A stretch of 64,000 nucleotides of DNA from an uncultured bacterium (lineage in GTDB: Bacteria; Planctomycetota; Phycisphaerae; Phycisphaerales; SM1A02): positions 984 through 64,983 of the forward strand of contig CAIKXA010000097.1 in assembly GCA_903831295.1 (NCBI GenBank), written 5' to 3'. A model generated the notes under the pieces. The model was given only the letters and a program-made list of their open reading frames with translations, did no database searches and was not told the origin of the DNA. Below, one piece after another: positions 8,343-27,516 of the stretch; position 1 is the first letter of the stretch, and each line of letters opens with the position of its first letter. Position numbers and translations under genes: made by a program.

Positions 8343-9695
8343 ATGGCAGCCTTTCAAAGTCCAAAGGGAACGCGCGACTTCTATCCAGATCAAATGGCGT
8401 TGCGTCGCCATGTGGAAAATATTTGGCGCAAGGCCAGCGTGGATTGTGGATTTGATGAGATCGAAGGTCCCACCTTTGAACATTTGTCGTTATTCACCGC
8501 CAAGAGCGGTCCTGGAATTGTAAGTGAGCTTTTTTCTTTTCGCAGAGCTGGTGGGAGCGATGATTACGCGTTGCGTCCTGAGTTCACTCCGACATTGGCG
8601 CGCATGGCCGCGGCGCGAGCTGGAACATTGTCCGTGCCCACAAAGTGGTTCGCTATTCCGCTGCACTTTCGCGCGGAGCGTCCACAGCGTGGAAGGTTGC
8701 GCGAGTTTGTGCAGTGGAATGTGGACTTGCTTGGAAGCGAAGGCGCAGCGGCTGATTGCGATGTGATTGCGTGCGCCGCTTTGGGTCTTGAACGGCTTGG
8801 TTTAAAGCCCACGGATGTGCGTTTTCGCTTGGCGCATCGCGGCGCTTCCGCGGCTGTGTTGACCGCGGCGGGCGTGGCGGGCGAGCACATTGGGGAAGCC
8901 TTTGAATTGCTTGATCGACGCGACAAATTGTCGCCCGAGGAGTTTCAAACGCGCGCCGTGAAGTTGGGTCTTGATGATGCGGCGCAGAAAAGATTCGCAG
9001 CTATCGCGGGAACCAAACTTCCAGTTTCGGCGAGCATGAATGATGTCGCAGCGTCGCTTGGGGTGGGCGCGGATGTGCTTGCTCCGCTTGCCGAGTTGTC
9101 TGAGAAATTAAATTCACTCGGCTTGTCGGATTGGTGCCAATGGGATTTTGGAATTGTTCGCGGACTTGCCTACTACACCGGCACTGTATTTGAAGTGCAC
9201 GAATGCGCGGGCAAGGAGCGCGCCATCGCTGGTGGCGGGCGCTATGACGGACTTGTTGAATTATTTGGTGGACCAAAAATGCCTGCGATTGGTTTTGGAA
9301 TGGGCGATGTTGTGCTTGGGCTTGTGTTGGCGGACAAGGGTTTGCTGCCAAAAGATGGCGGGCAACTTTTGCCTCGGCCTGATGTGTTTTTAATTTCAGA
9401 TGGAAGCGACGCCGCCGAGAAGGCGTTGCCCAAGTTGGTGATGCAAATTCGCCGCGCTGGTTTGCATGCGCGACACTCTTGGAAAGCCACCAAAAACGTG
9501 GGGAAATTGCTGAGTGATGCTGGCAAGTGCCGCGCGCGCTCCGCATTAATTCTGGGCGCCGAAATGGCCAATGGCGCCGTTGCGATCAAGGACCTGGATG
9601 GCGGCGGGCAGCGCATTGTGCCGCTTGAAGAAGTGGTCGCGACATTGCTGGCCATGACAACGGCCAACACATCCACTCCGTCTAAAGAAATTTAA
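8343..9695 (+). CDS. hisS: Histidine--tRNA ligase
   Basis: 'FQSPKGTRDFYP', 'LRPEFTPTLARM' and 'RAERPQRGRLREFVQWNVD' (class II motifs), plus a C-terminal anticodon-binding domain. I prefer the ATG at 8343 to the TTG at 8292. Confidence 0.93.
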   Translation: MAAFQSPKGTRDFYPDQMALRRHVENIWRKASVDCGFDEIEGPTFEHLSLFTAKSGPGIVSELFSFRRAGGSDDYALRPEFTPTLARMAAARAGTLSVPTKWFAIPLHFRAERPQRGRLREFVQWNVDLLGSEGAAADCDVIACAALGLERLGLKPTDVRFRLAHRGASAAVLTAAGVAGEHIGEAFELLDRRDKLSPEEFQTRAVKLGLDDAAQKRFAAIAGTKLPVSASMNDVAASLGVGADVLAPLAELSEKLNSLGLSDWCQWDFGIVRGLAYYTGTVFEVHECAGKERAIAGGGRYDGLVELFGGPKMPAIGFGMGDVVLGLVLADKGLLPKDGGQLLPRPDVFLISDGSDAAEKALPKLVMQIRRAGLHARHSWKATKNVGKLLSDAGKCRARSALILGAEMANGAVAIKDLDGGGQRIVPLEEVVATLLAMTTANTSTPSKEI

Positions 9696-9696
9696 T

Positions 9697-12024
9697 TCAT
9701 GGGTTGGCGGCTTTGGCGAAAGCCGCGGCAAACTCTTGGGAGTTCAGCGATTCATCAATCGCTTTCAAGCGTGACAAACGCATTGTGGCGCGTTCGTCCC
9801 AGCGATTGGCTGCGCGCAAAATTTCCAACTGGCGCAATTGACACAGCCACCACGACGGATCGCGCAAGGCGGGATCGGGTTCATATTCTTTGCCCGCTAA
9901 AATTTGCTTGTAAATAGACATCGCCTCGCCAAGGGATGTCGCATCGCCATTGGCAAACAGACATTCAGCTTTGCCCAGCAATGCTTCCTTGGAATTGGAT
10001 TTTAACTGCAGCGATTTTTGATAGGCGTTCTGGGCTTGCATAAATTCACCAGAAAAACGCAGTAAATCAGCCAAATCAAGCCAAGCCACTGCGTCGGCGG
10101 AGTTGCTCATGGTGAGAGTTTTAAACAGCGACGTGGCCGATGCCGCAAGATTGGCATTGCGAGAAGGCAAGGTTGCCGACCATCGCTCGCTCGGCATCAA
10201 CGCGCGTAGGCGTCGCGCAGTCAGACCCGCGATCAGTTCTGGATTTTTCTGGTTCGCGGCGATGATCTCCGTATCCGTGGAGATATCTTTTGCCAATGCC
10301 GCGTTGGCGCAAATTTTTGCGGACAATCGCCGCGCCGTCGCGGTTGGACCCAAAGATCCACCGTTGCTTCTCGCCAAGCAATCAAGCGCAGCTTGAGCGT
10401 TGCCTTTCTCAGATTCAATCCAGGCTTGCGCCGCGTTCAAGCGATCACGCAACTCGTTCACCGCCACTGAACTTTGCGCGATTGCGACTGTGGGCGCCGA
10501 AATTTCCAGCGCGCACGTTCGTTGATCTGCCATCGCCTCGGTGGCTAGAACCTGCCGCTCCAACTGCCACAAGCCAAAATCTGGATGATCCGGAAATGTG
10601 CTCGCACCCATTTCAACAGCCTTTTCCAGGCGATTTCGCGCTATCGCATCTTGACCATCAACGCCCTTGTCCAGTTCACGACTCACCCGAATTGCCAGGG
10701 CAATAGCGGCGGGACTGGCCGCGTCCGACGCATGCTCCTTGGCCAGCCTCATAGATCGGTCTGCTGCTTCACTCCAATGATCGGCGGCAAGATCCATGCG
10801 TGTCAATGTTCTTAAAGCCGCGGCTTGCATAGAGCCAAGCACGGCGGGATCGTTGGTCAGCGTCTCGAGCATGTTGATTTTTTCATTGATAGGTTCGCCA
10901 CGATCAATCGCTTGATCAACAGATGCGATCAAGCACATTGGATCGCGCTCAGGAAGAGGTGTGCCGTCGCGTTCAATGGAAGCGAGTTTGGAAAGGACCG
11001 CGTCACGCGTGGCTGAAAGATCTTTTTTAGAACTGTGGCGCAGAACATCAGACAGCGGCGCCGTCCAAGCACGTTGTGTGATTTGCAAATCCACACCCAA
11101 CTCACCCAAGGCTTGCTTACGCAATCGGGAAAGCAATTCCGCGATTGCAAGTTGCCGCATGATGGATCCTGAACCTTCAAGAACAACTCCGGCGTCGGCT
11201 GCCTGGCTTGGTCCTCTGAGCAAACCCGCGGCGCGCAAAGAGGCAAGATCCGCAAGAGTGAGCAAAGCCTCATCTTGACCGGCTTTTTGCCGTGAAAGCG
11301 AGAGATATATGTTGGCGCGCTGCTCATCGCCTAGGCGCGCCGCGGCCAAGCCGCCGTATCTACTCACAATGCTCGCTGTGCGATCATCCAGTTCGCTGAT
11401 CAACGCATCAAGACGAGCAAGGGCCGCTTCTCCCATGGCCCTGCGCTTTTGTGCGTCGTACTCGTGGGTTTCCGTATTTAAAATTTCCGCGAGAGATCGA
11501 AGTAATGGAATTCTTCGCGCGCGCTCCACTTGCTCCAACTGAGCGATCAATTGCGCGGTGGGTTGGTCGGGTCCCTTACGGGCAATGACAAGCACCGCGG
11601 CTGAGTCCGCCTCTTCCGCCGCAATCAACATTTCGCGGGAAAGTTCACGCACTCTCCGTCGTGCGTCGGGACCAGCGAGACCAAAAATCACACGGTCCAC
11701 ATCTCCGCCAGCTGGAAGCGCGATAGTGAAACAATCTTCCGCATGATCCGTCAACCAGATTGGCCAGCGAGAATCATTTTTGTTGGCGGAAAGAAGTCCG
11801 CGCCGAATGGAGAGAAGTTCATCGGCGGCCGTGCGTTGGGTGGCCTCGGTGGGAGCAATCTTCACGCGTTGTTTCAGATTTGCGATGCTCTCAAGAGCCG
11901 TCGCGGAAGAATCGCTGGCTGTTTGCGCTGGAGTATCTATAGCGGTGGGGTCGGCGGCTTGAGGCGCTGCATGTGTTTTTACAGCTATAAAACAGCCTAT
12001 AAAGACCAATTTCCAGATTCTCAT
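9697..12024 (-). CDS. Large secreted TPR-repeat/helical-repeat protein, last gene of the ExbBD-vWA operon
   Basis: Signal peptide 'MRIWKLVFIGCFIAVKTHAAP'. The protein is long and Ala/Leu-rich with helical repeats, and has TPR-like C-terminal units (e.g. 'FMQAQNAYQKSLQLKSNSKEALLGKAECLFANGD'). The ATG overlaps the upstream stop (ATGA). Confidence 0.7.
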   Translation of the reverse strand: MRIWKLVFIGCFIAVKTHAAPQAADPTAIDTPAQTASDSSATALESIANLKQRVKIAPTEATQRTAADELLSIRRGLLSANKNDSRWPIWLTDHAEDCFTIALPAGGDVDRVIFGLAGPDARRRVRELSREMLIAAEEADSAAVLVIARKGPDQPTAQLIAQLEQVERARRIPLLRSLAEILNTETHEYDAQKRRAMGEAALARLDALISELDDRTASIVSRYGGLAAARLGDEQRANIYLSLSRQKAGQDEALLTLADLASLRAAGLLRGPSQAADAGVVLEGSGSIMRQLAIAELLSRLRKQALGELGVDLQITQRAWTAPLSDVLRHSSKKDLSATRDAVLSKLASIERDGTPLPERDPMCLIASVDQAIDRGEPINEKINMLETLTNDPAVLGSMQAAALRTLTRMDLAADHWSEAADRSMRLAKEHASDAASPAAIALAIRVSRELDKGVDGQDAIARNRLEKAVEMGASTFPDHPDFGLWQLERQVLATEAMADQRTCALEISAPTVAIAQSSVAVNELRDRLNAAQAWIESEKGNAQAALDCLARSNGGSLGPTATARRLSAKICANAALAKDISTDTEIIAANQKNPELIAGLTARRLRALMPSERWSATLPSRNANLAASATSLFKTLTMSNSADAVAWLDLADLLRFSGEFMQAQNAYQKSLQLKSNSKEALLGKAECLFANGDATSLGEAMSIYKQILAGKEYEPDPALRDPSWWLCQLRQLEILRAANRWDERATMRLSRLKAIDESLNSQEFAAAFAKAANP

Positions 12025-12581
12025 TGCGGCCCCGCGAAGTGAATCTGTTGATAGCCGGCGCGAACTAAGCCGTTGAATGCGGCCACGGCGTCATCCCATG
12101 GAACATCCTGGGAGGGAGCGAGTTCAATCGGTTGATCGGCGGGAAAGAGTCCCGATGGATTCTCGGGTGAATACCGTTTTGAATTGAAGATGGCGGTGAG
12201 CTGCTCAAAGGTGTCTGGCTGAGCCATTGGAGCAATAATTTTTATTTTTGTCTGTTGCCCAATTCGCAATAACTCAATGCGAAGCGGGGGCTCATCCAGC
12301 GCGAGGGAATTTGGACTGACAACGGCGCCGCCACGTTGACTCAAATCCGTGCGTAAAAATTCCTCTCGATCTAGCGTTTTATTCGCGCACACAAAAAACA
12401 CCAGTAGAAAAAATGTGACATCGATCATTGGAATCACATTCAGCTTGATGCCGCGATTTCCTCGGCGCGCCGCGCGCTTCTCGGCCAACTTGTCATCCAG
12501 TATCTGCAAGGAGGCTTCCATCGGCTCCGTGCCACGGGCCAATTGATCCAACGCCGCCGCAAGAATGGCTGCTTCAGCCAC
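12021..12581 (-). CDS. ExbD/TolR-family protein (second copy, longer periplasmic domain)
   Basis: N-terminal 'NVIPMIDVTFFLLVFFV' is the ExbD/TolR TM signature. 8-nt overlap with the upstream ExbD. Confidence 0.8.
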   Translation of the reverse strand: MAEAAILAAALDQLARGTEPMEASLQILDDKLAEKRAARRGNRGIKLNVIPMIDVTFFLLVFFVCANKTLDREEFLRTDLSQRGGAVVSPNSLALDEPPLRIELLRIGQQTKIKIIAPMAQPDTFEQLTAIFNSKRYSPENPSGLFPADQPIELAPSQDVPWDDAVAAFNGLVRAGYQQIHFAGPQ

Positions 12582-13047
12582 CGCGATGCTCCGGCTGCAC
12601 AGCGAGTCTTAGCTTTACCAAATGTCCCGGAATCGCCTTGGTCGCGGCTTTGCCAACTTGATCTAAAACCGGAGAAATATAGGTGTATTTCACATTGGAG
12701 TCAGCGCGCAAATGAACCTCGGCCGCGGGATTGGCTCGAATGGAGGCGGCGACCGCGTTGCAGAGAGATTGAATCCCAGCGGTATCCGCCAAGTAGTCGT
12801 CGTTTAAAAATCTCCATGCGCTGACCTCGCCTTGATCATTGGCAATGGCATTGATCACAATCCGGGGTTCGTTGTGTGGAGCGACAGCAGCCGTGGGTGA
12901 GGGTTTGGGTAAATTCAGTTTCACAAAATCTGTAATTCCAATTTGCGACACAAGCGCGAAGAAAACCACCAGCAACATTGCGATGTCGATGAGCGGCGTG
13001 ATCACCGCCTCGATTTTCACCGGACCTCTCGTGAGCATGCTCTTCAT
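12574..13047 (-). CDS. ExbD/TolR-family protein
   Basis: 'ITPLIDIAMLLVVFFAL' TM signature. Size 157 aa. 4-nt overlap with the ExbB stop. Confidence 0.85.
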   Translation of the reverse strand: MKSMLTRGPVKIEAVITPLIDIAMLLVVFFALVSQIGITDFVKLNLPKPSPTAAVAPHNEPRIVINAIANDQGEVSAWRFLNDDYLADTAGIQSLCNAVAASIRANPAAEVHLRADSNVKYTYISPVLDQVGKAATKAIPGHLVKLRLAVQPEHRGG

Positions 13048-13820
13048 ATGGTGGCGTCCGCCATCACGCTCGATCGACCAGCCGCAGAATTCACCCGCAC
13101 GTGGCTAGGAGCAAATCGACTGATAGTTTTTTCAACTCGACGCACTGATTCCAATGTGGCGGAGTCGACCGTGTTGCGCATGGTCGCGTACGCGCCAAGG
13201 GCCGGAATGGCGATAATCAATCCCCAAAAAGTTGCGACCAACGCGGTTCCAATTCCAGCCGCTAAAGTTACGGGATCGGCATTGCCGCCAGTTCGGGCGA
13301 TGGCTTGGAAAGCCATAATAACCCCGTAAACAGTGCCTAAAAGACCAATCATTGGACTCACTTGACCGAGCACATTCAAAGGCTCCAGTTTGCGAAATCG
13401 TTTCACAGTGACTTCTTCCCCTGTTTGCTCCGTAGCTCGCAACATGCTGGCGTGTCCCGCTGGAGCTTGTTTCAAGGCCGCGCTTAAAATGGCGCTGTAG
13501 TCGCTCGCCTCCGCTGCCGCCAAATGAATCACTTCCTCAGTGCGACCTTCTTCCAAAAGTTTGTCAATCTCATTGGCAAATTCCAGGGGCAAAATTTTAT
13601 TACTTTTGTTGCGCGTCCACAAAGTTGAAATTAAAGACACATTGATCACGCTGAGCAAAATCAAAAGCCAAATCATGCAGCTTCCAACCCATTCAATATG
13701 GCTCGTGCCATCTCCAGCGCTTTCCATGGTCACAAAGAAAATATATCCAAAGCCCTCCGCAAATGTGGCGGAGGTGGGAATAAGCAATGCAAAGACGAAG
13801 GCAAGAGAATATTTTTTCAT
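13044..13820 (-). CDS. MotA/TolQ/ExbB proton-channel family protein
   Basis: Three-TM topology. The conserved C-terminal block 'SPMIGLLGTVYGVIMAFQAI...AAGIGTALVATFWGLIIAIPA' is typical of ExbB/TolQ. Confidence 0.88.
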   Translation of the reverse strand: MKKYSLAFVFALLIPTSATFAEGFGYIFFVTMESAGDGTSHIEWVGSCMIWLLILLSVINVSLISTLWTRNKSNKILPLEFANEIDKLLEEGRTEEVIHLAAAEASDYSAILSAALKQAPAGHASMLRATEQTGEEVTVKRFRKLEPLNVLGQVSPMIGLLGTVYGVIMAFQAIARTGGNADPVTLAAGIGTALVATFWGLIIAIPALGAYATMRNTVDSATLESVRRVEKTISRFAPSHVRVNSAAGRSSVMADATI

Positions 13821-13829
13821 ATGAAGTTC

Positions 13830-14891
13830 CTAGCGGGTATCAAGTCCAAGATCTTGTCGAGTGATGTTGATGAATCCTTCTGCGCCACCATGGTCCTTGG
13901 CAATCCGTTGCAAAGTTCCCAGTGGATCAGGATCAAGAAATTGAATGCATTGCACGCGCGTCAGGCGTCTGCCCGAAGCGGAATCAATCGGATTGAGGCG
14001 TTCTAGCGCCGCAAGAAGCGATACTTCTGACATTTCGAATTCGCCCGCGCCGGTGATGTCCGACGAGAGCAAGAAGATAATTTCCGGCCGCATGGCCATG
14101 GCCGCCTCAAACGCGGCGATAGGATTTGAGCGGCCCGATGGAATCATTTTGGCTTCGATCCATTTCATGGTTTCACTCACGCGCTCGGGCGTGGCGGATT
14201 GCAAGTTGCCTCCTGGAGGAACCGTGATGGCCTCACCGCGCTGGAAAAAAATCACGCCGAAACTTTGGCGCGGGTCCAGTCGTTGCAAACTTTTGCGAAG
14301 CTCCTCGATAATCAGAGGAAATGTTCCAACCAAACTTCCGCTGGCATCGACCAAATACACCACACGCCGCGCGTTGCTTGCTTTGAGTCCTGCAAAATTA
14401 ATAGTGACTGATTTGTTGACCCCGCTCAATTGCCCAAACTCGTGCGCCGCGAGTGACAGTGGGGCTTGCACTTGGCGCACTGCGATCAACGCTTGTTCCG
14501 CTGCGCTCTGCAAAGTTTGTGATTGAGTTAAAGATGTGTCGCTCGCATCCGTGGCTCCTGGAAGGTTTGCGGCTTGACGAAAATCATTTCCGCCACTGGA
14601 GGCGGACGCGGCGACAAGTTGCACGGTGGGGGCGTATGCCGGCCGTTCAAAATCAAGCACCAGTGTGGGCGGAGCAATTGGCTTGCGCGAAAGTCCAACC
14701 GCCGTGGCCGCGGCGGCGATGACCAACGCCGCAACAATTCCGTGAGCGCTCAGCGAGGCGACCCACGCAAAAACACTTCGAAAAGCTGTATTTTCACGCG
14801 GTCGACCACCAAATTGGCGGATGGCTTTCGCCAGCGCTTGAGAGTTTGTGTCTTGCGTGTCGACGACTTGATTCTCCATCGGAGTTTCCAT
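13830..14891 (-). CDS. Membrane-anchored von Willebrand factor A (vWA) domain protein
   Basis: Short N-terminal cytoplasmic segment, one TM ('FAWVASLSAHGIVAALVIAAAATAV') and a low-complexity linker. The vWA fold follows, with a MIDAS-like 'VYLVDASGSL', then 'FGVIFF' and 'IIFLLSSD' strands. Confidence 0.72.
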   Translation of the reverse strand: METPMENQVVDTQDTNSQALAKAIRQFGGRPRENTAFRSVFAWVASLSAHGIVAALVIAAAATAVGLSRKPIAPPTLVLDFERPAYAPTVQLVAASASSGGNDFRQAANLPGATDASDTSLTQSQTLQSAAEQALIAVRQVQAPLSLAAHEFGQLSGVNKSVTINFAGLKASNARRVVYLVDASGSLVGTFPLIIEELRKSLQRLDPRQSFGVIFFQRGEAITVPPGGNLQSATPERVSETMKWIEAKMIPSGRSNPIAAFEAAMAMRPEIIFLLSSDITGAGEFEMSEVSLLAALERLNPIDSASGRRLTRVQCIQFLDPDPLGTLQRIAKDHGGAEGFINITRQDLGLDTR

Positions 14892-14895
14892 CAGA

Positions 14896-15534
14896 TCAAT
14901 CCGCTTGGTGCTTGGCGAAGATCAGCCTGTCAAGCGAAAAGCGTCCTGGACCAGTTAGCAAAAGACTCAACGACATCAAGATCGCGGTCAAGGCGCTGGC
15001 GAATAAATGCATTTTTTCCTGTTGCCACTCCCAAGGCAATGCGTTGCGCACTTGTGGCCATGTCATAAGCCAAATATGAAACACACCTCCAATAAATAGC
15101 AGCAGCGCAAACCAGCGCGTGAATAATCCCACCAACAACACAAATCCACCAACAAGTTCGGCGATGGCGCAGACCCATCCCACAATCAAAGGTTGCGGCA
15201 CTTTGCAATCATCAAGGCGAAGCACAAAGTGATTTAGGTTGCGCATGGTGTTGGCGCCCGCGCCGGATTTTTCGGATTCATCTTTGGTTTGCTTATCTTG
15301 CTTGTCAGATTCGCTTTGGGTTTCTTCCCGCAATGCCACGGGCTTTATTTTTTCCACCGACTCCTCAATCATCTTCGCGGGGCTGCCCATGGCTTCAATG
15401 CGCGCCGCGTCTTGGTTGCTGAAATTGGATGTGCGAAAAATAGAGACATAGCCCGCGGGAAGCACAATCGCGGCTAAAACAATTCGGGCGAACAGCGGGG
15501 CAAGTTCAAGGGATGCATTTTGGCTTAGGCTCAT
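14896..15534 (-). CDS. DoxX-family membrane protein with an inserted acidic/Lys-rich loop
   Basis: DoxX-like helices ('AELVGGFVLLVGLFTRWFALLL', 'LTGPGRFSLD'). Its stop lies 4 nt before the vWA start. I prefer the ATG at 15534 to the TTG at 15576. Confidence 0.65.
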   Translation of the reverse strand: MSLSQNASLELAPLFARIVLAAIVLPAGYVSIFRTSNFSNQDAARIEAMGSPAKMIEESVEKIKPVALREETQSESDKQDKQTKDESEKSGAGANTMRNLNHFVLRLDDCKVPQPLIVGWVCAIAELVGGFVLLVGLFTRWFALLLFIGGVFHIWLMTWPQVRNALPWEWQQEKMHLFASALTAILMSLSLLLTGPGRFSLDRLIFAKHQAD

Positions 15535-15658
15535 AGGTGGATTCTGCCGATAAAAGGTGCTGTAAATTGCTCTCAACCAATCACAATTTCAATGCTATCG
15601 ACAAGATCGACACCAAGTGTCTATAGGTTGTCTTGATAGGATTCGAAACTCACTCGCC

Positions 15659-15742
<84 letters not shown>

Positions 15743-15771
15743 TTGGATTGACCGATCTATAAATAGAAATC

Positions 15772-17145
15772 ATGGCCGTCGCCCACAACAACTCTTGGAA
15801 TCCAGAAAGTTGGAAAAACTTTCCCGCTGTGCAACAACCGCGCTACCCCGATGCCGTCGCGCTTGAGCATGCGTTGGGGGAGTTGTCGCAGTTGCCACCG
15901 TTGGTGACCAGCTGGGAGATCGAGTCGTTAAAGTCTCAACTTGCCGACGCGGCCGAGGGCAAACGATTTTTATTGCAGGGGGGTGACTGCGCTGAAATGT
16001 TTGACGAGTGCCGCAGTCCGATCATCGCGGCCAAACTAAAAATTCTTTTGCAGATGAGCCTTGTGCTCACGCATGGCGGTGGTCGGCCGGTGATTCGCGT
16101 GGGCCGCTTCGCTGGTCAATACGCCAAGCCACGCAGCGATGAATTTGAAACTCGCGGCGACTTGAAATTTGATTCATACCGTGGCGACTTGGTCAACGGT
16201 TTGGAATTTCACCACCACACACGCACGCCCGACCCGCATCGTTTGATCGATGCTTACAGTCGATCCGCTCTCACCCTTAATTTTATTCGCTCGCTTGTGG
16301 ATGGCGGCTTCGCGGATTTGCATCACCCGGAATATTGGGATTTGGACTTTGTGCAGCACAGCCCACTGCGTCTTGAATACCAGAAAATCACGCGCGAAAT
16401 AGGGCAAAGCCTTCGATTTATGGAGACACTCGCCGGCGCGCCAGTGCATGAAATGCGCCGTGTGGATTTTTTCACAAGCCATGAGGGACTGGTGCTTCCA
16501 TATGAGCAGGCGCAGACTCGGCAAGTTCCCCATCGCCAAGGTTGGTGGGATCTTTCAACGCATATGCCTTGGATTGGATATCGAACCGCGGTGCCGGGCA
16601 ACGCGCACATTGAATTTTTCCGTGGCATTCAAAACCCTGTTGGAGTGAAAGTTGGTTCGGGCACCAAGGAAACCACGCTGCTTGAAATCATTCACGCGCT
16701 GAATCCAACAAACGAACCTGGACGCCTTACGTTGATCCACAGATTTGGCGCCCACGAAATCGCCAAGAGTTTGCCGCCACTCATTGACGCCGTGGCCAAA
16801 AGCAAAGCGCGCGTTTTGTGGGTCTGTGATCCAATGCATGGCAACACGCAAACAGTCACCATGAATGGCGGTCCGCAAGCTGGCGCCAAAGTGAAGACGC
16901 GAAAGTTTGCCCATATTCTTGCCGAGGTCGAGCAAGCGTTTGAAATTCATAAACAGAAATCCACCGTGCTTGGCGGAGTTCACTTTGAATTGACCGGCGA
17001 GAATGTCACCGAGTGCACAGGCGGCGCTCGCGGTTTGGGCGACGATAATTTGACGCAGGCTTATCGCAGTCGAGTGGATCCACGCTTGAACTACGAGCAA
17101 TCGTTGGAGATGGCCATGTTGGTGGCGCGTCGCTTGGATCGCTGA
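15772..17145 (+). CDS. 3-deoxy-7-phosphoheptulonate (DAHP) synthase, class II
   Basis: About 457 aa. 'FLLQGGDCAEMF' and 'RFAGQYAKPRS' blocks, and the 'HGNT' region, are characteristic of plant-like class II DAHP synthases. Confidence 0.9.
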   Translation: MAVAHNNSWNPESWKNFPAVQQPRYPDAVALEHALGELSQLPPLVTSWEIESLKSQLADAAEGKRFLLQGGDCAEMFDECRSPIIAAKLKILLQMSLVLTHGGGRPVIRVGRFAGQYAKPRSDEFETRGDLKFDSYRGDLVNGLEFHHHTRTPDPHRLIDAYSRSALTLNFIRSLVDGGFADLHHPEYWDLDFVQHSPLRLEYQKITREIGQSLRFMETLAGAPVHEMRRVDFFTSHEGLVLPYEQAQTRQVPHRQGWWDLSTHMPWIGYRTAVPGNAHIEFFRGIQNPVGVKVGSGTKETTLLEIIHALNPTNEPGRLTLIHRFGAHEIAKSLPPLIDAVAKSKARVLWVCDPMHGNTQTVTMNGGPQAGAKVKTRKFAHILAEVEQAFEIHKQKSTVLGGVHFELTGENVTECTGGARGLGDDNLTQAYRSRVDPRLNYEQSLEMAMLVARRLDR

Positions 17146-17224
17146 GCCACTGAGCGCTGATTTGCGGTGCGGGTCACCACAAACACCACCAAACTTGCGC
17201 AATTCGGTTACAATCGGTCACTTC

Positions 17225-18571
17225 ATGCCCCAAAAACGACGCGTTGTAATCACTGGAATAGGCACCACAAGCGCGGTGGGCGTTGGCATGGAATCACTAT
17301 GGAACGCCCTGATTTCGGGGCAATCTGGCGCCAAGTTGTGCGACACATTCGATATGAGCGGGTTTTCCTGCCCATTTGTGGCGCAGTTGCCAGCGGATCA
17401 ATTGGACATCAAACAATTTGTTCCAAAGAGTTACCGCAAAGCCACCAAGGTTATGGCGCGAGACATTGAACTCGCCGTAGCCGCGGCGCATGAAGCCGTG
17501 AAAGACGCTGGTCTTGTCACCAAGTCGCATGAACCCGTCGACGGCAAAGTCACGCTGCCAGCCAACCGCATGGGTTGCCAGATTGGCGCGGGCTCAATCG
17601 CGGCGGAGGAGAACGAATTAACCGTGGCGTTCGCATCAAGTCAAACTGCCGAAGGCGAAATTGATTTGGGCGCGTGGGGTTCAAGCGGCATGCAAAATAT
17701 CACGCCGCTGTGGATGTTGAAATATTTACCAAATATGTTGGCGTGCCATGTCACCATCATCCATGACTGCCAAGGTCCATCCAACACCATCACTTGCGGC
17801 GAGGCCAGCGCGTTGTTGTCGATCGGTGAAAGCATGCGCGTGATTGGCCGCGATGCCGCTGATTGCTGCTTGTCCGGTGGCGTTGAAAGCAAAGTGAACT
17901 TGATGGGCGTGCTGCGCCAATTTTATTCCAAGCGTTTGGCGACCGCCTCTTTAAGTGATGATCCCGCGGGCGTGATTCGTCCTTTCAATCCAAACGCAAC
18001 AGGCGGAATGGCCGGCGAGGGCGGCGCCATTTTGGTGCTTGAAGAAATGGAAAGTGCGCGCGCGCGCGGAGCCAAAATTCAGGTTGAATTGGCTGGTTTT
18101 GGTGCCAGTCAGAGTTTCTGCCAAGACACGATTGGCATGGGAGCGGAGGCCGATGGCGCCGGTATCGCGCAAGCCATTGAGTGCGCGTTGCAAGAAGCCG
18201 GTGTGAAGCCCGCGGATGTGGACGCGATTGTTCCGTTTGGTTGTGGCGTGCGTGACATTGACGCAAGCGAGGCCGCTGGTTTGCGAAAAGTATTTGGCGA
18301 GCGTGTTTCAAAAATTCCACTGGTCACAATTTCCACGGCCACAGGAAATTGCGGCGCTGGATTTGGCGGGGTCGCCGCCAGCGTCGCTGTGCAATGTTTG
18401 CGCGAGCAAAAATTGCCGGCGCGAATTCAAGGCGGCAAGCCTGGCGAAAGTGTTGGCGGACTTGATGCCGCCACCATTGGCACGCGCGACGCCGTGCTGA
18501 ACACCATCGTTGTCACCACCACAAGTTTGGGCGGACAAAATGCCGCCATTGTTCTGCGGAGGATTTCATGA
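17225..18571 (+). CDS. Beta-ketoacyl synthase-like protein (KS fold; Cys retained, both catalytic His absent)
   Basis: 'RRVVITGIGTTSAVG' is a KS N-terminus and 'SNTITCGEASALLSIGE' carries the Cys. The His motifs are replaced: 'PFGCGV' stands for 'AHGTGT' and 'TGNCGAG' for 'GHxxGAAG'. I prefer the ATG at 17225. The stop overlaps the next ATG. Confidence 0.85.
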   Translation: MPQKRRVVITGIGTTSAVGVGMESLWNALISGQSGAKLCDTFDMSGFSCPFVAQLPADQLDIKQFVPKSYRKATKVMARDIELAVAAAHEAVKDAGLVTKSHEPVDGKVTLPANRMGCQIGAGSIAAEENELTVAFASSQTAEGEIDLGAWGSSGMQNITPLWMLKYLPNMLACHVTIIHDCQGPSNTITCGEASALLSIGESMRVIGRDAADCCLSGGVESKVNLMGVLRQFYSKRLATASLSDDPAGVIRPFNPNATGGMAGEGGAILVLEEMESARARGAKIQVELAGFGASQSFCQDTIGMGAEADGAGIAQAIECALQEAGVKPADVDAIVPFGCGVRDIDASEAAGLRKVFGERVSKIPLVTISTATGNCGAGFGGVAASVAVQCLREQKLPARIQGGKPGESVGGLDAATIGTRDAVLNTIVVTTTSLGGQNAAIVLRRIS

Positions 18572-19890
18572 GCGAGCCACGTGTGGTTGTGACGGGCATG
18601 GGTTGGGTCACCAGTCTTGGTCACTCGGTTGACAGCGTTTGGCAACGCCTTATGAATTCCGAAAGCGGCATGGCGCCCATCACGCATTTCAAGGCCGCCA
18701 CATTTCCCACCACATTCGCCGCAGAGGTGAAGCCCGACTTCGATTACCGAACTTTTTTGACTGATCCCAAAGTCCACGCCACCACGGCTCTCAACGCGCA
18801 GTTCGCCTTGGGCGCCGCGCGACAAGCCTGGAATCAGGCTGGATTTCATACGAATCCGCCCAAGGACCCGCGCCGCGTTGGTTTGTATTTGGGCGCTGGT
18901 GAAGGCGTTCTCGATTTTGACAATTACGCCGGCGCGTTGATCTCGGCATGGGATGCGGCCAAACAAAAAGTTGATGGCGTGCGCTGGGCCAAGGCCGCGC
19001 TTGCGCGCCTAGACGCGTTCAAAGAAATAGAGCAAGAGCCAAACATGTCGCTTGCGCACTTGGCGCGCGAGTTTGGAATTCGCGGACCCGCGTCGAATTG
19101 TTTAACCGCGTGCGCCGCCAGCACGCAGGCCATCGGCGAAGCCTTCAGCATGATCCGCCGCGGCGACACCGACATCATGATGTCTGGTGGAACGCACACC
19201 ATGATTCATCCGCTTGGCGTGACCGGTTTCAATCGACTCACCGCGTTGAGCACTTTCAAAGGCGACCCAACAATGGCAAGCCGTCCATTTTGCATGAGCC
19301 GCGACGGCTTTGTCATGGGTGAGGGCAGTGGAATGGTGATTCTTGAAAAACTTGAGCACGCTCTTGCGCGTGGCGCCACGCCGCTTGCGGAGGTGATTGG
19401 CTACGGATCAAGCGCCGACGCATTTCGTATCACGGATATTCAGCCTGATGGCCGCGGCGCCGCTGCCGCCATTCATTTGGCTTTGAAGCAAGCCAATATT
19501 GATCCCGCCGCCGTTGGCCCCGATGGTCGACCGCTGATTCATTACATCAGCGCGCACGGCACGGGCACCAAGGAAAATGATTCCATTGAAACGCGCGCCG
19601 TAAAAGTTGTCTTTGGTGAGCGCGCCAAGAAAATTCCAATGAGCAGCATCAAGAGCATGATGGGTCATTTGATCGCCGCGGCCGGCGCTGTGGAATTTAT
19701 GACTTGCATTCTGGCCATTCAGCGCGGCATGTTGCCGCCCACGCGCAATCACAATGATCCGGATCCCGCTCTTGATCTTGATTACGTTCCCAATGTTGCG
19801 CGCAAATGCGCCGTGGACACATGCATGAGCAACTCATTTGGCTTCGGCGGACAAAACGATACACTTATTGTCACGCGTTTCAATGCTTGA
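18568..19890 (+). CDS. fabF: 3-oxoacyl-ACP synthase II (FabF-type, complete Cys-His-His triad)
   Basis: 'RVVVTGMGWVTSLG', 'SNCLTACAASTQAIGEA', 'SAHGTGTKEND', 'KSMMGHLIAAAGAVE' and 'NSFGFGGQN'. Confidence 0.9.
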   Translation: MSEPRVVVTGMGWVTSLGHSVDSVWQRLMNSESGMAPITHFKAATFPTTFAAEVKPDFDYRTFLTDPKVHATTALNAQFALGAARQAWNQAGFHTNPPKDPRRVGLYLGAGEGVLDFDNYAGALISAWDAAKQKVDGVRWAKAALARLDAFKEIEQEPNMSLAHLAREFGIRGPASNCLTACAASTQAIGEAFSMIRRGDTDIMMSGGTHTMIHPLGVTGFNRLTALSTFKGDPTMASRPFCMSRDGFVMGEGSGMVILEKLEHALARGATPLAEVIGYGSSADAFRITDIQPDGRGAAAAIHLALKQANIDPAAVGPDGRPLIHYISAHGTGTKENDSIETRAVKVVFGERAKKIPMSSIKSMMGHLIAAAGAVEFMTCILAIQRGMLPPTRNHNDPDPALDLDYVPNVARKCAVDTCMSNSFGFGGQNDTLIVTRFNA

Positions 19891-22947: not shown

Positions 22948-24363
22948 GTGGTTGAGCGGCATCCAATTCGCGAAGTGTGGGCGCAGGCGTGGCCAAGCGT
23001 TCTGACCATGGTGAGTTACACCATGATGCAGTTTGTTGATTCGCTCATGGTGGCGCAAGTGGGTCCCGTGGAAATGGCGGCGCAAGGCAACGGCGGCATC
23101 TGGAGTTTTGTTCCGCTGGCGTTTCTGTTTGGCGTGTTGACAATGGTGAACACCTTCACCGCGCAAAATGTTGGAGCCGGTCGCCGCGAAGAGATCGCGC
23201 GTTTCGCTTGGACGGGATTTTGGTTTTCACTTGTGGTGTGGGTGTTGATCATGTTGCCGTGGGCGGCGTGCTTGCCAATGGTGTTTCGATTCTCGGGCCA
23301 CTCCGAAAAACTTCTCACACTGGAAACTCAATACGCGGTCACGCTTGTGTTGGGCTCGATCTTTGCCTTGACAGGCAAGTGCATAAGCAATTTCTATTTT
23401 GGTTTACAGCGGCCACGGGTTATCGCGGTGGCGGCATTGACAGGAAATGTCGTGAACATCCTGCTGAATTATGTGCTGATTTACGGCGAAAATGGCTTGC
23501 CTTCCATGGGTTTGCCTGGCGTTCCCGGCATGCCCGCACTGGGCGTGTTGGGCGCGGCAATCGCCACGGTGTGCGGCACATGCGCCGAGGTGGCCATTCC
23601 ACTGGCGCTGTTCTTCTCCGCGCGTTTCGCCAAGGACCACGGCGTGTGGCAATCATGGCGGCCATCACTTGGCGACTGCAAGAAACTTTTGAAAGTTGGA
23701 TGGCCCGTTGGAATTCAGTTTGGAAATGAGATCACATGTTGGGCGATCTTTATGACTGTGCTGGTTGGAAAATTTGGCGAGATCCATCTCACGGCGGGTT
23801 GGGCCACGCTGCGCTTCATGCACCTGTCATTCATGCCCGCGGTTGGATTCAGCGTGGCCACCACGGCTTTGGTTGGAAAATATATGGGAGCGGGGCGGCA
23901 AGATCTTGCGGCCAATCGCGCGCACTGGGCGTTATTGCTGGCCACCATCTATATGACGCTGTGTGGAGTTGCCATGGCCATCTTTCGCGCGCCGCTCATT
24001 TCACTTTTTACATCCACAGCCGATGCCGCCAATACCGCGGAAATTATTCGTATTGGTTCCACGCTCATGATTTGCGCCGCGGTGTTTCAAACCTTCGACG
24101 CCATTGGAATTGTTTATAACGGCGCGTTGCGTGGCGCGGGCGACACGGTTGTGCCCGGCCTGTACACCATCGCCTTCAATTGGATTTTTATCGTGCTTGG
24201 CGGATGGCTCTTTGTGGTCCTGTGGCCGGCTCTGGAGAGTCTGGGTCCTTGGATTGCCTCGGCTATTTACATCATTGTGCTGAGCGTGTTCTTAACCAAG
24301 CGCTTTGAATCAGGGCATTGGCGGCGCATTCGCCTCTTGGAATCAAACCCCATTCACGGTTAG
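22948..24363 (+). CDS. MATE-family efflux transporter
   Basis: 12-TM protein. The N-terminus 'REVWAQAWPSVLTMVSYTMMQFVDSLMVAQVG' is a typical MATE start. GTG start. Confidence 0.85.
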   Translation: MVERHPIREVWAQAWPSVLTMVSYTMMQFVDSLMVAQVGPVEMAAQGNGGIWSFVPLAFLFGVLTMVNTFTAQNVGAGRREEIARFAWTGFWFSLVVWVLIMLPWAACLPMVFRFSGHSEKLLTLETQYAVTLVLGSIFALTGKCISNFYFGLQRPRVIAVAALTGNVVNILLNYVLIYGENGLPSMGLPGVPGMPALGVLGAAIATVCGTCAEVAIPLALFFSARFAKDHGVWQSWRPSLGDCKKLLKVGWPVGIQFGNEITCWAIFMTVLVGKFGEIHLTAGWATLRFMHLSFMPAVGFSVATTALVGKYMGAGRQDLAANRAHWALLLATIYMTLCGVAMAIFRAPLISLFTSTADAANTAEIIRIGSTLMICAAVFQTFDAIGIVYNGALRGAGDTVVPGLYTIAFNWIFIVLGGWLFVVLWPALESLGPWIASAIYIIVLSVFLTKRFESGHWRRIRLLESNPIHG

Positions 24364-24395
24364 ACTGCCCGACCACCTTTTACCACTGGAGATTT

Positions 24396-25319
24396 ATGTC
24401 AAACACTGGCCTTGATACCGTCCTCGCCGCAACATCCGATCCCGCCGCTTCCCAAGTTTTCATGAAGCAAGGAAAAGCTTTCGAAGCCGACGCCAAATTC
24501 TTCGAGGCGCTTGAGGCCTACAAGAACGCCGCGCAAGCCAACCGCACCACCACCACGCTGTTCAATGTGGCGCGTATGCAGGATTACCTCGGCTATGACG
24601 ACGACGCCATGCGCAGTTACGAGGAGTGCACTCGTATGCCGAATCCTCCGATCAACGCGTTCCTGAATCTCGCGGTTCTGCTTGAGGATGCCGCGCAATT
24701 CACCCGCGCCAGCAAGTTGATTCAAAAAGTGCTTGAGGCAAATCCAAATCATCCGCGCGCCAAGTTGTTCATCCGCGATGTTCAGGCCAGCAAGAACATG
24801 TTGTACGACGAGGAGTTGGCCCGCCTGAAGGGACGCGAGGAGGCAATGTTTGATTTGCCAGTGGCCGAGTTTGAACTTTCCATTCGCGCGCGCAATTGCT
24901 TGAAGAAGATGAGCATCCGCACGTTGGGTGATTTGCTTCGCATTGGCGAGGCCGAGTTGCTTTCATACAAGAATTTTGGCGAGACCAGTTTGGTTGAGAT
25001 CAAGCAAATGCTCACCGCGCGCGGTTTGCGCTTGGGTCAGCAACTTGACCGCGGCCACTACGACAAGGTTCGCAGCGAAGTGTTGGAGAAGATGAAGGGC
25101 ACCGTCGCTGACGGCGTGCTAGGCCTTACGGTTGGAACGCTCAACTTGGGCATTCGCAGCCGAAAAGCGCTGCAATTGCTGGGTATTCAAACGGTTGGCG
25201 ATCTTGCCGCACGAACTGAAGCCGAGTTGATGGGCGTGAAGAATTTTGGCGCCACCAGTTTGGTGGAAATTCATGAGCGTCTTGCTGAACACGGTCTCGC
25301 CTTGCGTACGCTTGAGTGA
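24396..25319 (+). CDS. TPR-like N-terminal domain fused to two RNA polymerase alpha-subunit C-terminal-domain (alpha-CTD, HhH) modules
   Basis: Two copies of the alpha-CTD signature. The first is 'ELSIRARNCLKKMSIRTLGDLLRIGEAELLSYKNFGETSLVEIKQML'. The second is 'LGIRSRKALQLLGIQTVGDLAARTEAELMGVKNFGATSLVEIHERL'. There is no alpha-NTD. I prefer the ATG at 24396. Confidence 0.85.
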   Translation: MSNTGLDTVLAATSDPAASQVFMKQGKAFEADAKFFEALEAYKNAAQANRTTTTLFNVARMQDYLGYDDDAMRSYEECTRMPNPPINAFLNLAVLLEDAAQFTRASKLIQKVLEANPNHPRAKLFIRDVQASKNMLYDEELARLKGREEAMFDLPVAEFELSIRARNCLKKMSIRTLGDLLRIGEAELLSYKNFGETSLVEIKQMLTARGLRLGQQLDRGHYDKVRSEVLEKMKGTVADGVLGLTVGTLNLGIRSRKALQLLGIQTVGDLAARTEAELMGVKNFGATSLVEIHERLAEHGLALRTLE

Positions 25320-25352: not shown

Positions 25353-26861
25353 ATGGCGGTGAATTCTGGATGGCAAGCACCCTCGCAAGCTGGACGATTT
25401 ATTGCCACGCTCGCGGCAATTGTGATTGTCGCTTGGGGTTACATGACCATTCCAAGCGGATGTGAAACAGAGGGAGCGGTTAGATCGCGGACCGCGTTAC
25501 CAGGCAGTCCTTTAGAAAAAAATTCCACTGGCTCATCCACGGCCGCGCCAATCGCAAGAGTTGACGGCGCCACGGATGTTGTTGAAAAGCCAAAGACTCC
25601 GCCTCCACTGCAGCGGCCATTTCCGCCAACGTCGCAGCCGAACATTCGTGTGCGAGTTGCGGCTGTGCGCGACGAACCGGTGCAACTGACGCATTCCTCT
25701 GGTTGGCTTTGGCTCAAAGGTGAGAACGCGCAATCGGGTCGAACATTTCGCTCGCCCGTGGCGGTGTATCCCGTGAATGATGGTTGGCGCATCGTGGAGG
25801 CTTTTGGAACCACGCAGGCGGACAATTATCGGTTGAAAGAAATTGGCCCGCTGCAAGTGAGAGCACCACAAAATTCCCGCGGGGATATTCAATTTGGTGG
25901 CAACGCATATTTGGGCAATGTCAACATTGTGCGCCGCGCGGATATCAATGAAAACGCGGCGGATTTGGTGTTTGTTGTGCCCTTGGAAGAGTATTTGCCT
26001 GGCGTGTTGGCGAAGGAATTATTCAAGGGTTGGCAGGCCAACACGTATCAGGCGCAAGCCATCGCCGCGCGCAGTTACGCCGCGTGTGAAATGGAGTGGT
26101 GGAGAAATCGCCGCCACTACGATGTGGTCGCAGGTCAGGCAAGTCAAGCGTGGGTGGGCGCAACAAGTGACGCGAAAAGTTTGGACGCGGTCGCCAATAC
26201 GCGCGGACAATATCTTGTGTTTGATGGTCGCGTTGTGCCGGCGTACTACTCCAGTTGTTGCGGTGGTTTGCCTTCGTCCGCGGTGGATTCCATTCGTGAT
26301 GGAACTTGGACCCAGATCACGCCGCTGAATATCGCCGACAAAGGTCGCCGTACGATGTGTTGCGAGAAGGCGCCAGTGGCAAAGTGGCAGGCTTCATTTT
26401 CAATTTCAGAAACGGTCGATCGCATGAATGAATGGGCCAAGCAAGCTGGGCGCAAAGATTTGGGTCCAATGAATGGTATGAAAAGTTTTGTTGTGGTCGA
26501 TAAAAATTCCGTCGGGCGTTCCATGACGTTTCTGATCACCGATAAAAATGGAAAGCGATTCACCTGGGACGCATCCGATTTTCGTGTAGCGCTCAACAGT
26601 GGCGCCAATGGTTCGCGTGACTCGTTGAAATCTTCCGCGCTTGAGCCGCGCATCGATGGAGGACGCTTAATTTTGGATGGTCGCGGCTATGGTCACGGCG
26701 CTGGAATGTGCCAATATGGCGCGGAATTCATGGCAAAATCAGGAAAATCTCCGCGGGCGATTTTGGAGCGCTACTACCCAGGGGCCACCGTTGTCACCAT
26801 GCCAGAAACTTCCAGCGCCACCGCCACAAGTTCGGCGTTGGTGAGTTCTCCCAAACCTTAA
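25353..26861 (+). CDS. SpoIID/LytB-domain protein (peptidoglycan-remodelling type)
   Basis: 'LEEYLPGVLAKE', 'QAQAIAARSYA' and 'VPAYYSSCCGG' are SpoIID-family blocks. The N-terminus has a TM or signal segment. GAAGGAG lies 6 nt upstream of the ATG. Confidence 0.82.
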   Translation: MAVNSGWQAPSQAGRFIATLAAIVIVAWGYMTIPSGCETEGAVRSRTALPGSPLEKNSTGSSTAAPIARVDGATDVVEKPKTPPPLQRPFPPTSQPNIRVRVAAVRDEPVQLTHSSGWLWLKGENAQSGRTFRSPVAVYPVNDGWRIVEAFGTTQADNYRLKEIGPLQVRAPQNSRGDIQFGGNAYLGNVNIVRRADINENAADLVFVVPLEEYLPGVLAKELFKGWQANTYQAQAIAARSYAACEMEWWRNRRHYDVVAGQASQAWVGATSDAKSLDAVANTRGQYLVFDGRVVPAYYSSCCGGLPSSAVDSIRDGTWTQITPLNIADKGRRTMCCEKAPVAKWQASFSISETVDRMNEWAKQAGRKDLGPMNGMKSFVVVDKNSVGRSMTFLITDKNGKRFTWDASDFRVALNSGANGSRDSLKSSALEPRIDGGRLILDGRGYGHGAGMCQYGAEFMAKSGKSPRAILERYYPGATVVTMPETSSATATSSALVSSPKP

Positions 26862-26880
26862 TCGCCCCAAGGATTCAATC

Positions 26881-27516
26881 GTGTTCACAGGAATTATTCA
26901 ACATATGGTCGCGGTGGAATCCCTACAAGAGAAACAATATGGCAAACAATTGGTTTTGAACTGCGGCGAGTGGCCGAACAATCCAATTATTGGTGAAAGT
27001 ATTTGCGTGGATGGATGTTGTTTAACGGTGGTGGAAATTATTCGTGGTTCCTTGGCCTTTGATGTGGTGCCTCAGACTTTGCAACATACAACCATTGGAA
27101 ATTTGCGCAGCGGGGACATGGTGAATGTTGAACGCGCGTTGCGCGCTGATTCATTGCTCGGTGGCCATATGGTTCAAGGACATGTGGACACCACGGGGGC
27201 GGTCTTGGATGTCGATCGCTCCAATGGGCAGTGGCGCACGCGCATTGAGTCGCCAACTTCGATCGATCATGTTTTGCAAGAGCGCGGCAGTGTTACTGTT
27301 GACGGTGTGAGCTTGACGATTGCCACCAAAGGCCAAGGTTGGTTTGAAGTGGCGTTGATTCCAGAAACGCTGGCCAAAACAACATTGCAGTTTCGCTTGA
27401 AAGGGTCGCGCGTGAATCTGGAAGCGGATTCCATGGCAAAACACATCGCCGTCGAAGTTGCTCGGCAAATGCAAATACTGGGAATATCAGCGGAATCACT
27501 TGCAAAATCTCACTGA
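26881..27516 (+). CDS. ribE: Riboflavin synthase (alpha chain)
   Basis: 'MFTGIIQ' start. Duplicated lumazine-binding halves ('ICVDGCCLTV', 'VTVDGVSLTI'). GTG start. Confidence 0.92.
   Translation: MFTGIIQHMVAVESLQEKQYGKQLVLNCGEWPNNPIIGESICVDGCCLTVVEIIRGSLAFDVVPQTLQHTTIGNLRSGDMVNVERALRADSLLGGHMVQGHVDTTGAVLDVDRSNGQWRTRIESPTSIDHVLQERGSVTVDGVSLTIATKGQGWFEVALIPETLAKTTLQFRLKGSRVNLEADSMAKHIAVEVARQMQILGISAESLAKSH

Follow-up and report, generated by a model that had tools for sequence, protein, structure and literature searches.

A six-gene DoxX-vWA-ExbB-ExbD-ExbD-TPR operon in an uncultured Phycisphaerales bacterium: a probable TonB/TolA-type system with a vWA-headed transducer

The six genes and their products

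We analysed 64,000 nucleotides of DNA (hereafter the window; GenBank assembly GCA_903831295.1, contig CAIKXA010000097.1, positions 984 to 64,983) from an uncultured bacterium of the Phycisphaerales (Planctomycetota), with a focus on six tightly coupled genes on the minus strand at 9697-15576. In gene order, these encode a DoxX-family protein, a protein with a von Willebrand A (vWA) domain, an ExbB, two ExbD paralogues (ExbD1 and ExbD2), and a tetratricopeptide repeat (TPR) protein. The original prediction, made from the sequence alone, had described six packed genes and the five junctions between them, and both the list of open reading frames (ORFs) and direct reading of the sequence bore this out. 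The TGA stop of the DoxX gene is separated from the ATG of the vWA gene by a spacer of four nucleotides (TCTG), and the TAG stop of the vWA gene from the ATG of the ExbB gene by nine nucleotides. The ExbB and ExbD1 genes share an ATGA overlap, the two ExbD genes overlap by eight nucleotides (GTGGCTGA), and the ExbD2 and TPR genes are again joined by an ATGA overlap. The genes and their parts, from first to last, are:

14896-15576, minus strand: DoxX-family inner-membrane protein with four transmembrane helices and a charged loop of about 80 residues inserted after the first (Pfam DoxX)
13830-14891, minus strand: predicted vWA-headed, TonB/TolA-like transducer of 353 amino acids, with a cytoplasmic tail, one transmembrane helix, a disordered linker and a C-terminal vWA domain (AlphaFold2, AF2; Foldseek)
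14688-14789, minus strand: transmembrane helix of the vWA protein, residues 35-68, with Ser46-x3-His50 (codons 14742-14756) (alignment, AF2)
14403-14687, minus strand: periplasmic linker of the vWA protein, residues 69-163, with a helix at 120-141 (low predicted local distance difference test score, pLDDT, of 48-60)
13833-14402, minus strand: vWA domain, residues 164-353, with a DASGS loop resembling a metal ion-dependent adhesion site (MIDAS; codons 14334-14348) (Foldseek)
13044-13820, minus strand: ExbB/TolQ-type pentameric motor subunit of 258 amino acids with a signal-peptide-like N-terminus (Pfam MotA_ExbB, 3e-23)
12574-13047, minus strand: ExbD/TolR paralogue 1, 157 amino acids (Pfam ExbD, 1.7e-16)
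12021-12581, minus strand: ExbD/TolR paralogue 2, 186 amino acids, with a GTG start and an N-terminal cytoplasmic extension of about 45 residues (Pfam ExbD, 2.2e-13)
9697-12024, minus strand: secreted TPR-like alpha-solenoid of 775 amino acids with a signal peptide at about residues 1-19 (11968-12024) (AF2, Foldseek)

The vWA protein was aligned with 61 relatives sharing 28-82% identity with it. Its AF2 model, based on 61 homologues, had an overall pLDDT of 81, with the domain blocks mostly above 90 and the transmembrane helix at 94-98, and showed the tail, helix and disordered linker that the original prediction had likened to the topology of TonB and TolA, with the vWA domain as the head. 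The Pfam family VWA_3 matched this protein only below threshold (2.6e-4; 21.5 bits versus a cutoff of 27); among the 61 family members, VWA_3 matched 37 and VWA_2 matched 19. This weak profile call was confirmed by the match of the predicted structure to solved vWA domains: Foldseek paired the domain with ITIH1, CMG2, the bacterial vWA protein 4fx5, the calcium-channel alpha2delta subunit and integrin I domains, each with a probability of 1.0, and the target-normalised TM-score against single-domain vWA chains was about 0.6-0.7. No TonB or TolA family matched any of the 61 members at E <= 0.01.

Within the transmembrane helix, His50 was present in all 61 relatives and Ser46 in 59, and the pattern [ST]xxxH was found in the first 120 residues of 129 of the 136 full-length representatives. 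In TonB and TolA, binding to the motor is by the SHLS motif, one half of which is Ser-x3-His (PMC12204202). Directly after the membrane, residues 74-88 of the linker hold a conserved hydrophobic-D-F-x2-P-x3-P segment (P74 in 41, F81 in 48, P84 in 42 and P88 in 46 of the 61 relatives), which may be a 'motor box', the element that touches ExbD/TolR in TonB and TolA, and may contact the periplasmic domains of ExbD. The linker is 95 residues long in the window protein; the median for the family is 92. Its proline content is 7% here and ranges from 5 to 39% across the family, the upper end being TonB-like; the earlier statement that there is no Pro-rich spacer therefore holds for the window protein, with relatives reaching 39%.

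The head carries the DxSGS motif that had been described as MIDAS-like, in the form DASGS at residues 182-186. Positions D182, S184 and G185 of the motif, together with S255, were invariant in the 61 relatives, and S186 was conserved in 53. The site is nevertheless only a partial MIDAS, because its fifth (Asp) position is not conserved (S276 in 55 and D278 in 14 of the 61). In the cytoplasmic tail, the closer half of the family shares a motif [IV]R-x-[LFM]GG-x-P, which here reads IRQFGGRP (residues 24-31; 14798-14821) and was modelled in a short helix.

A homologue search with the vWA protein returned 128 homologues. All of the named ones belonged to the Phycisphaerae/Planctomycetota, and every one of these was annotated as 'hypothetical protein'. 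With HMMER, the family extended to 818 representative clusters (50% identity) at E <= 1e-30, and an alignment-based homologue search with the family brought in nothing further afield than the Planctomycetota relatives recovered before.

The ExbB and the two ExbD signatures reported earlier were upheld by the Pfam matches to MotA_ExbB and ExbD. Among 67 ExbB homologues, the pore threonines T163 and T197 were kept in every aligned sequence, gaps aside; likewise, the transmembrane aspartates Asp21 of ExbD1 and Asp54 of ExbD2 were each 100% conserved among about 100 homologues. The motor thus looks functional, with its catalytic residues in place and its activity expected by homology. The best solved relative of the ExbB protein was Escherichia coli TolQ (1.1e-9, versus 2.9e-7 for ExbB), and the best Protein Data Bank (PDB) matches of ExbD1 and ExbD2 were both TolR, that of ExbD2 at 1.3e-6. 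NCBIfam also ranked TolQ and TolR first, with 66.7 and 43.4 bits. These best matches lie far under their cutoffs (221 and 127, respectively), and the motor appears not to be a genuine motor of either the Tol or the Ton system. The ExbD2 homologue of one related locus (L014) is of similar length, at 194 amino acids.

In neither Pfam nor NCBIfam did one of the six proteins match a TonB_C, TonB_2 or TolA family at E <= 1, which agrees with the original prediction that none of them holds such a domain. Its description of the system as 'TonB-less' applies to the C-terminal domain of the vWA protein, but not to the N-terminus, which is TonB-like. In addition, PADLOC models gave zero matches to the six proteins at E <= 0.01, and hence no sign of an anti-phage defence system with MotAB-like parts, such as Zorya.

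For the 775-residue product of the last gene, the sole matches to Pfam TPR families covered residues 640-711 and stayed under the cutoff. Its AF2 model (pLDDT 87.6) was all-helical and formed an uninterrupted solenoid after the signal peptide, and Foldseek retrieved long TPR scaffolds, namely SKI3, Ctr9, NatA and subunits of the APC. The secreted TPR scaffold proposed earlier was therefore recovered at the level of structure, despite the sub-cutoff Pfam matches. Its 38 homologues were strongly conserved over their full length.

The first gene product matched Pfam DoxX at 2e-10 (41.6 bits; curated cutoff 23.6). The first possible start of its gene is a TTG, giving an ORF up to 15576, and an alternative ATG is located at 15534. 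As the first 12 or so residues are gapped in most homologues, the ATG, which was also the start chosen in the original prediction, is likelier and fits the homologue alignment better. Two motifs, ELxGG..L.GL..R and G.G..S.D, were kept across 69 DoxX homologues. In other bacteria, the DoxX family is tied to quinone or thiol redox complexes. Here, DoxX is probably a conserved inner-membrane accessory of the system; a literature search pairing DoxX with ExbD found nothing relevant.

Conservation of the locus and natural vWA::TPR fusions

We compared 98 related loci (83 after dereplication), annotated with iterated hidden Markov models (HMMs) built from the six window proteins, and limited each count to the loci with enough flanking sequence. 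The DoxX gene was directly upstream of the vWA gene in 48 of 59 dereplicated loci. An ExbB gene was downstream of the vWA gene in 58 of 68, so that the synteny of vWA with ExbBD on which the original prediction had rested is common among relatives, but not universal. ExbB plus two ExbD genes were present in 46 of 56 loci, and a homologue of the TPR protein followed either the motor or the vWA gene itself in 38 of 45. The complete six-gene order was retained in 27 of the 37 fully flanked loci.

In the window, the operon lies between hisS and a block formed by tRNA-Leu, DAHP synthase and ketoacyl-synthase genes. Of the related loci, 41 have a DAHP synthase II gene as a neighbour, including some whose vWA protein is only about 35-45% identical, and this widely conserved neighbour identifies the locus as a core-chromosome position rather than an island.

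Outside the main clade, three loci of Tepidisphaerales (L008-L010) exhibited the order vWA-ExbB-ExbD-ExbD, followed by a gene for a secreted, weakly TPR-like protein of 930-1018 amino acids; the upstream genes were unrelated and DoxX was absent. Because these loci share the association of vWA, motor and TPR within unrelated flanks, it is not merely an inherited gene order. Their downstream proteins are 'TPR-like' solely by weak Pfam TPR matches at the equivalent C-terminal position. When the TPR family was compared by hhalign with the large downstream proteins of a Tepidisphaerales locus (L009) and a motor-less locus (L015), probabilities of only 3-7% were obtained; the iterated TPR-family HMM does link the L015-type proteins to the family (E 1e-18). 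One of the Tepidisphaerales loci (L008, 7395-9648) encodes two tandem vWA transducers before ExbB-ExbD-ExbD, both with Ser-x3-His and the second without DxSG[SP]. They recall the two transducers reported for Tichowtungia.

In several lineages (L015 and L087-L092), DoxX, vWA and TPR genes were found together with no motor genes between them or nearby, and Ser-x3-His was retained in all of these. Overall, the motif was kept in all 13 motor-less loci that were checked, as well as in the Tepidisphaerales homologues. DoxX-vWA-TPR is the tightest conserved unit of the locus; these three genes travel together, and in such genomes the motor is presumably encoded elsewhere.

Moreover, the vWA and TPR genes were sometimes fused in frame. 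Four representatives (P0284, P0293, P0241, and P0277; 913-974 amino acids) were clear vWA::TPR fusions, with E values of 8e-32 to 1e-9 for the TPR HMM. A fifth protein, P0304 (897 amino acids), has a junction of the same appearance and is a probable fusion, for which the TPR HMM gave no match. None of the five has a signal peptide at the junction. One fusion (L099, 760-3684) directly follows a DoxX gene, with no motor genes nearby. Four of the five cases are single-contig observations, and the sequence cluster of P0304 is present in two independent data sources. Frameshift artefacts were considered as an explanation and judged unlikely, given that the clusters have diverged past 50% identity, that the signal peptide has gone from the junction, and that the P0304 cluster was found in both sources. 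By a Rosetta-stone argument, these fusions point to a physical association of the vWA head with the TPR solenoid in the periplasm.

Taken together, the Ser-x3-His signature in the transmembrane helix, the linker of about 95 residues, and the adjacency to ExbB, which extends to Tepidisphaerales loci with unrelated flanks, make the assignment of the vWA protein as the transducer of the motor well supported. A competing explanation of these data is that DoxX, vWA and TPR proteins form a membrane/periplasmic complex independent of any motor, and that the ExbB-ExbD-ExbD genes adjoin it for historical reasons and serve a canonical TonB elsewhere. The persistence of DoxX-vWA-TPR without motor genes (L015, L087-L092, and L099) is in keeping with this, as are the fusions found without a motor and the fact that the gene order of the clade is conserved well past the operon. 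However, an invariant His and a near-invariant Ser in a single transmembrane helix are hard to explain without a transmembrane partner, and they match the motor-binding motif of TonB and TolA. The order vWA-ExbB-ExbD-ExbD also recurs in Tepidisphaerales without DoxX and with different flanks, and in the window the genes are translationally coupled in an operon without a TonB_C protein. We therefore regard a motor-independent complex as quite unlikely.

The vWA protein as a transducer, and comparison with known systems

To our knowledge, TonB and TolA were long the sole known carriers of inner-membrane proton-motive energy to the outer envelope of Gram-negative bacteria. The operon probably encodes a force-transduction system of this type, driven by the proton-motive force, in which a vWA-headed transducer replaces the TonB_C or TolA-III domain. 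The core of the original prediction, a membrane-anchored vWA protein in the place of TonB or TolA on an ExbBD motor with a TPR partner, was supported by the Ser-x3-His motif, the motor residues, the recurrent synteny and the vWA::TPR fusions.

In the proposed mechanism, the ExbB/TolQ pentamer would enclose a heterodimer of ExbD1 and ExbD2, and proton flow via their two transmembrane aspartates would drive the motor, as in its homologues. The vWA protein would dock on the outside of the pentamer by its single transmembrane helix, with the Ser46-x3-His50 face placed as in TonB and TolA; this placement follows the motif and the synteny. The flexible linker, of about 95 residues, would span the periplasm, and its hydrophobic-DF-x2-P-x3-P segment may touch ExbD. 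At the distal end, the vWA head and the TPR solenoid are expected to act together, as suggested by their obligatory adjacency and their natural fusions, and the pair is probably a module that grips an envelope partner, possibly via the partly conserved MIDAS. DoxX, coupled upstream, would be the conserved inner-membrane accessory.

A system of this kind has been proposed before. Williams-Jones et al. 2025 (Mol Biol Evol 42:msaf138; PMC12204202) described 'vWA force transducers' in bacteria of the Planctomycetes-Verrucomicrobia-Chlamydiae (PVC) group, from genomes only, starting from Tichowtungia aerotolerans (Kiritimatiellota), which has no recognisable TonB or TolA. The family was reported in Proteobacteria, Planctomycetes, Verrucomicrobia, Bacteroidetes, and Rhodothermaeota, and AlphaFold3 models placed the His of the vWA transducers on the motor (PMC12204202). 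In our literature search for VWA with ExbB and ExbD, this was the sole relevant paper. Hence, the statement of the original prediction that no characterised example is known stands in so far as none has been characterised, but the same class had already been described computationally.

We judged the kinship by architecture and synteny, set against the description in that paper. The shared features are a single transmembrane helix that carries a conserved His within an SHLS-type motif, about 100 residues of disordered linker, and a C-terminal vWA fold, as well as adjoining tolQ-like, two different tolR-like and TPR genes in PVC bacteria. The gene order differs, being DoxX-vWA-tolQ-tolR-tolR-TPR here and TPR-tolQ-tolR-tolR followed by vWA in the paper, and there is one transducer here versus two in the Tichowtungia locus. 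DoxX has 0 occurrences in the text of PMC12204202, and neither motor-less DoxX-vWA-TPR loci nor vWA::TPR fusions are described there. The locus thus belongs to the kind proposed in 2025, with a lineage-specific sixth component; the DoxX partner, the motor-less DoxX-vWA-TPR core and the vWA::TPR fusions add new comparative evidence. Together with the DoxX partner and the fusions, the invariant His is a handle that can be added to the earlier proposal, and the natural fusions suggest that the vWA head has the TPR solenoid for its direct partner. If the proposal is true, a third type of transducer with an integrin-like vWA head widens the TonB/TolA principle, and it could explain how PVC bacteria without recognisable TolA or Pal maintain their envelope.

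Among the known systems, Ton has the same 5:2-type motor driven by the proton-motive force, with the ExbD transmembrane Asp and the ExbB pore Thr, and a transducer with a short cytoplasmic tail, one transmembrane helix bearing Ser-x3-His and a long periplasmic spacer. A Ton-like function in nutrient import, whereby the vWA head would open an outer-membrane transporter and a contact between the MIDAS and an acidic residue would replace that between the TonB box and TonB_C, could be derived from this combination of motor and TonB-like anchor, and from the Pro-rich, TonB-like linkers of some relatives. The locus nevertheless differs from Ton in the absence of TonB_C, a spacer that is not Pro-rich, two ExbD paralogues, and DoxX and TPR proteins as extra partners, the obligatory TPR partner having no Ton counterpart. 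Moreover, neither the operon nor the scanned ORFs of the window include a gene for a TonB-dependent receptor, the motor is closer to TolQ/TolR than to ExbB/ExbD, and the constant housekeeping context is unlike that of Ton-dependent loci, whose surroundings are typically variable and linked to a substrate. Import of this type is therefore unlikely.

The resemblance to Tol-Pal includes the best scores of the motor, which were obtained against TolQ/TolR, the housekeeping chromosomal context, and the TPR protein encoded by the last gene, like CpoB in tol-pal. TolA reportedly binds the TPR protein CpoB/YbgF, a parallel to the vWA-TPR association suggested here. The differences are that a TolA-III domain, TolB and Pal are all missing from the operon, and that its TPR protein, at 775 amino acids, matches no CpoB family. 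According to Witwinowski et al., as cited in the supplement of PMC12204202, no pal was found in Planctomycetes. A constitutive, Tol-like role in envelope maintenance is weakly supported over Ton-like import and over gliding or adhesion, on the basis of the anciently conserved housekeeping setting, the TolQR leaning of the motor, the terminal TPR gene recalling CpoB, and the lack of pal in Planctomycetes. A bolder version of this idea is that DoxX-vWA-TPR would be an ancient, self-contained envelope module of the Phycisphaerae, which connects to a TolQR-type motor, whether this is encoded within the operon or elsewhere, and does the job that Tol-Pal has in the outer-membrane stabilisation or division of other Gram-negative bacteria, in a phylum reported to be without Pal; vWA-TPR would then be a new force-bearing head and DoxX a hitherto unrecognised, obligatory inner-membrane subunit of a 5:2-motor system. 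We consider this version conceivable, though doubtful.

Gliding and adhesion enter through the Agl-Glt machinery of Myxococcus, in which a TolQR-type motor is coupled to CglB, an adhesin of the outer membrane with a vWA domain (PMC9946355 and PMC11761067). Both that machinery and the locus studied here link such a motor functionally to a vWA-domain protein, and Williams-Jones et al. 2025 (PMC12204202) suggested a surface adhesion or gliding device. In contrast to the vWA domain studied here, which forms the head of an inner-membrane transducer, CglB is a lipoprotein adhesin in the outer membrane, and TonB-like Glt proteins serve there as transducers. A vWA domain tethered to the inner membrane by about 95 residues cannot reach the cell surface; furthermore, no Glt-like outer-membrane genes are nearby, the context is that of housekeeping genes, and the populations of origin seem to be Phycisphaerae of the freshwater plankton. 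An adhesion or gliding device is accordingly very improbable.

Two other types of system have vWA proteins anchored in the membrane. The Bat aerotolerance operons (BatA-E), to which the original prediction had drawn a link, also combine such proteins with TPR proteins. That link was not borne out: Bat operons have no ExbB/ExbD, and there is neither a MoxR ATPase nor a DUF58 gene in or beside the operon here, so that kinship was rejected and the resemblance considered superficial. We know of no Bat protein that carries the Ser-x3-His transmembrane motif. The second type is the 'trans-pore helix' (TPH) vWA/TolQ-only family, which has no tolR/exbD partner and whose vWA protein, with a transmembrane Asp like that of ExbD, is predicted to insert into the pentamer itself (PMC12204202). 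Here too, a membrane-anchored vWA protein is encoded next to a TolQ-like gene. Three loci with distant relatives of the vWA protein (L011-L013) are probably members of this family described by Williams-Jones et al.: the proteins have neither Ser-x3-His nor DxSGS and are encoded next to ExbB, and in L011 the transmembrane region starts with WWDE and a short ExbB follows. Unlike these probable members, the window protein has Ser-x3-His, no transmembrane Asp, and two ExbD genes beside it.

Several observations weigh against the reading of the operon as a system with a vWA-headed transducer. Ten of the 68 loci have no motor genes adjacent to the vWA gene, and the vWA protein is therefore not strictly tied to the motor cassette. 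Much of the synteny sample comes from a single clade with generally conserved gene order, so that the counts from this main clade overstate independent support. As for the transducer itself, the relatives do not conserve the Leu(+11)/Ser(+15) half of the classical SHLS motif, and a profile of the N-terminal region (35 sequences), run against the whole set of PDB sequences, with entries for ExbB-ExbD motors and for TolQ-TolR motors among them, matched none at E <= 10; the likeness of the N-terminus to TonB and TolA is for this reason one of motif only. In addition, no beta-strand 'motor box' was predicted in the AF2 model of the vWA monomer, and the MIDAS is without a conserved fifth ligand. 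An outer-membrane partner was not identified, nor was a TonB-box-like ligand or an element that binds peptidoglycan. Finally, PMC12204202 gives the function of the family as unknown and reports no phenotypes; the proposal is computational only, with no experiment on any member.

Operon boundaries and other features of the window

A tRNA-Leu gene (anticodon TAG; 15659-15742, plus strand) is situated between the start of the operon and the divergently oriented DAHP synthase II gene, leaving less than about 125 nucleotides for the operon promoter. A promoter and terminator scan of 9400-16000, of a kind that is uninformative for Planctomycetota, found sites in numbers no higher than in shuffled controls, and nothing that was convincing as an internal terminator. 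An Rfam search matched only a tRNA and no regulatory RNA. Beyond the tRNA gene, DAHP synthase II and two ketoacyl-synthase genes (15772-19890) are conserved neighbours of the locus, and gene order in the clade is unusually stable.

Among the window ORFs scanned, no TonB-dependent receptor, OmpA/Pal family member or convincing TolB was found. The sole Tol-Pal-like element seen in the window was a secreted PD40 beta-propeller protein of 448 amino acids (39103-40449, plus strand). This protein was rejected as a TolB, since it reached 81 bits for TIGR02800, versus a cutoff of 343, and matched over the propeller only.

Other genes in the window included one for an unusual stand-alone alpha-CTD protein (24318-25319, plus strand; 333 amino acids), with an N-terminal TPR region and two RNA polymerase alpha C-terminal domains and without an alpha N-terminal domain. 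SpoIID-like and SpoIIE-like (PP2C) genes and a gene for an ATP:guanido phosphotransferase (McsB-like) were clustered at 25353-28850 and 29151-30209, and a squalene-hopene cyclase was encoded at 36316-38358.

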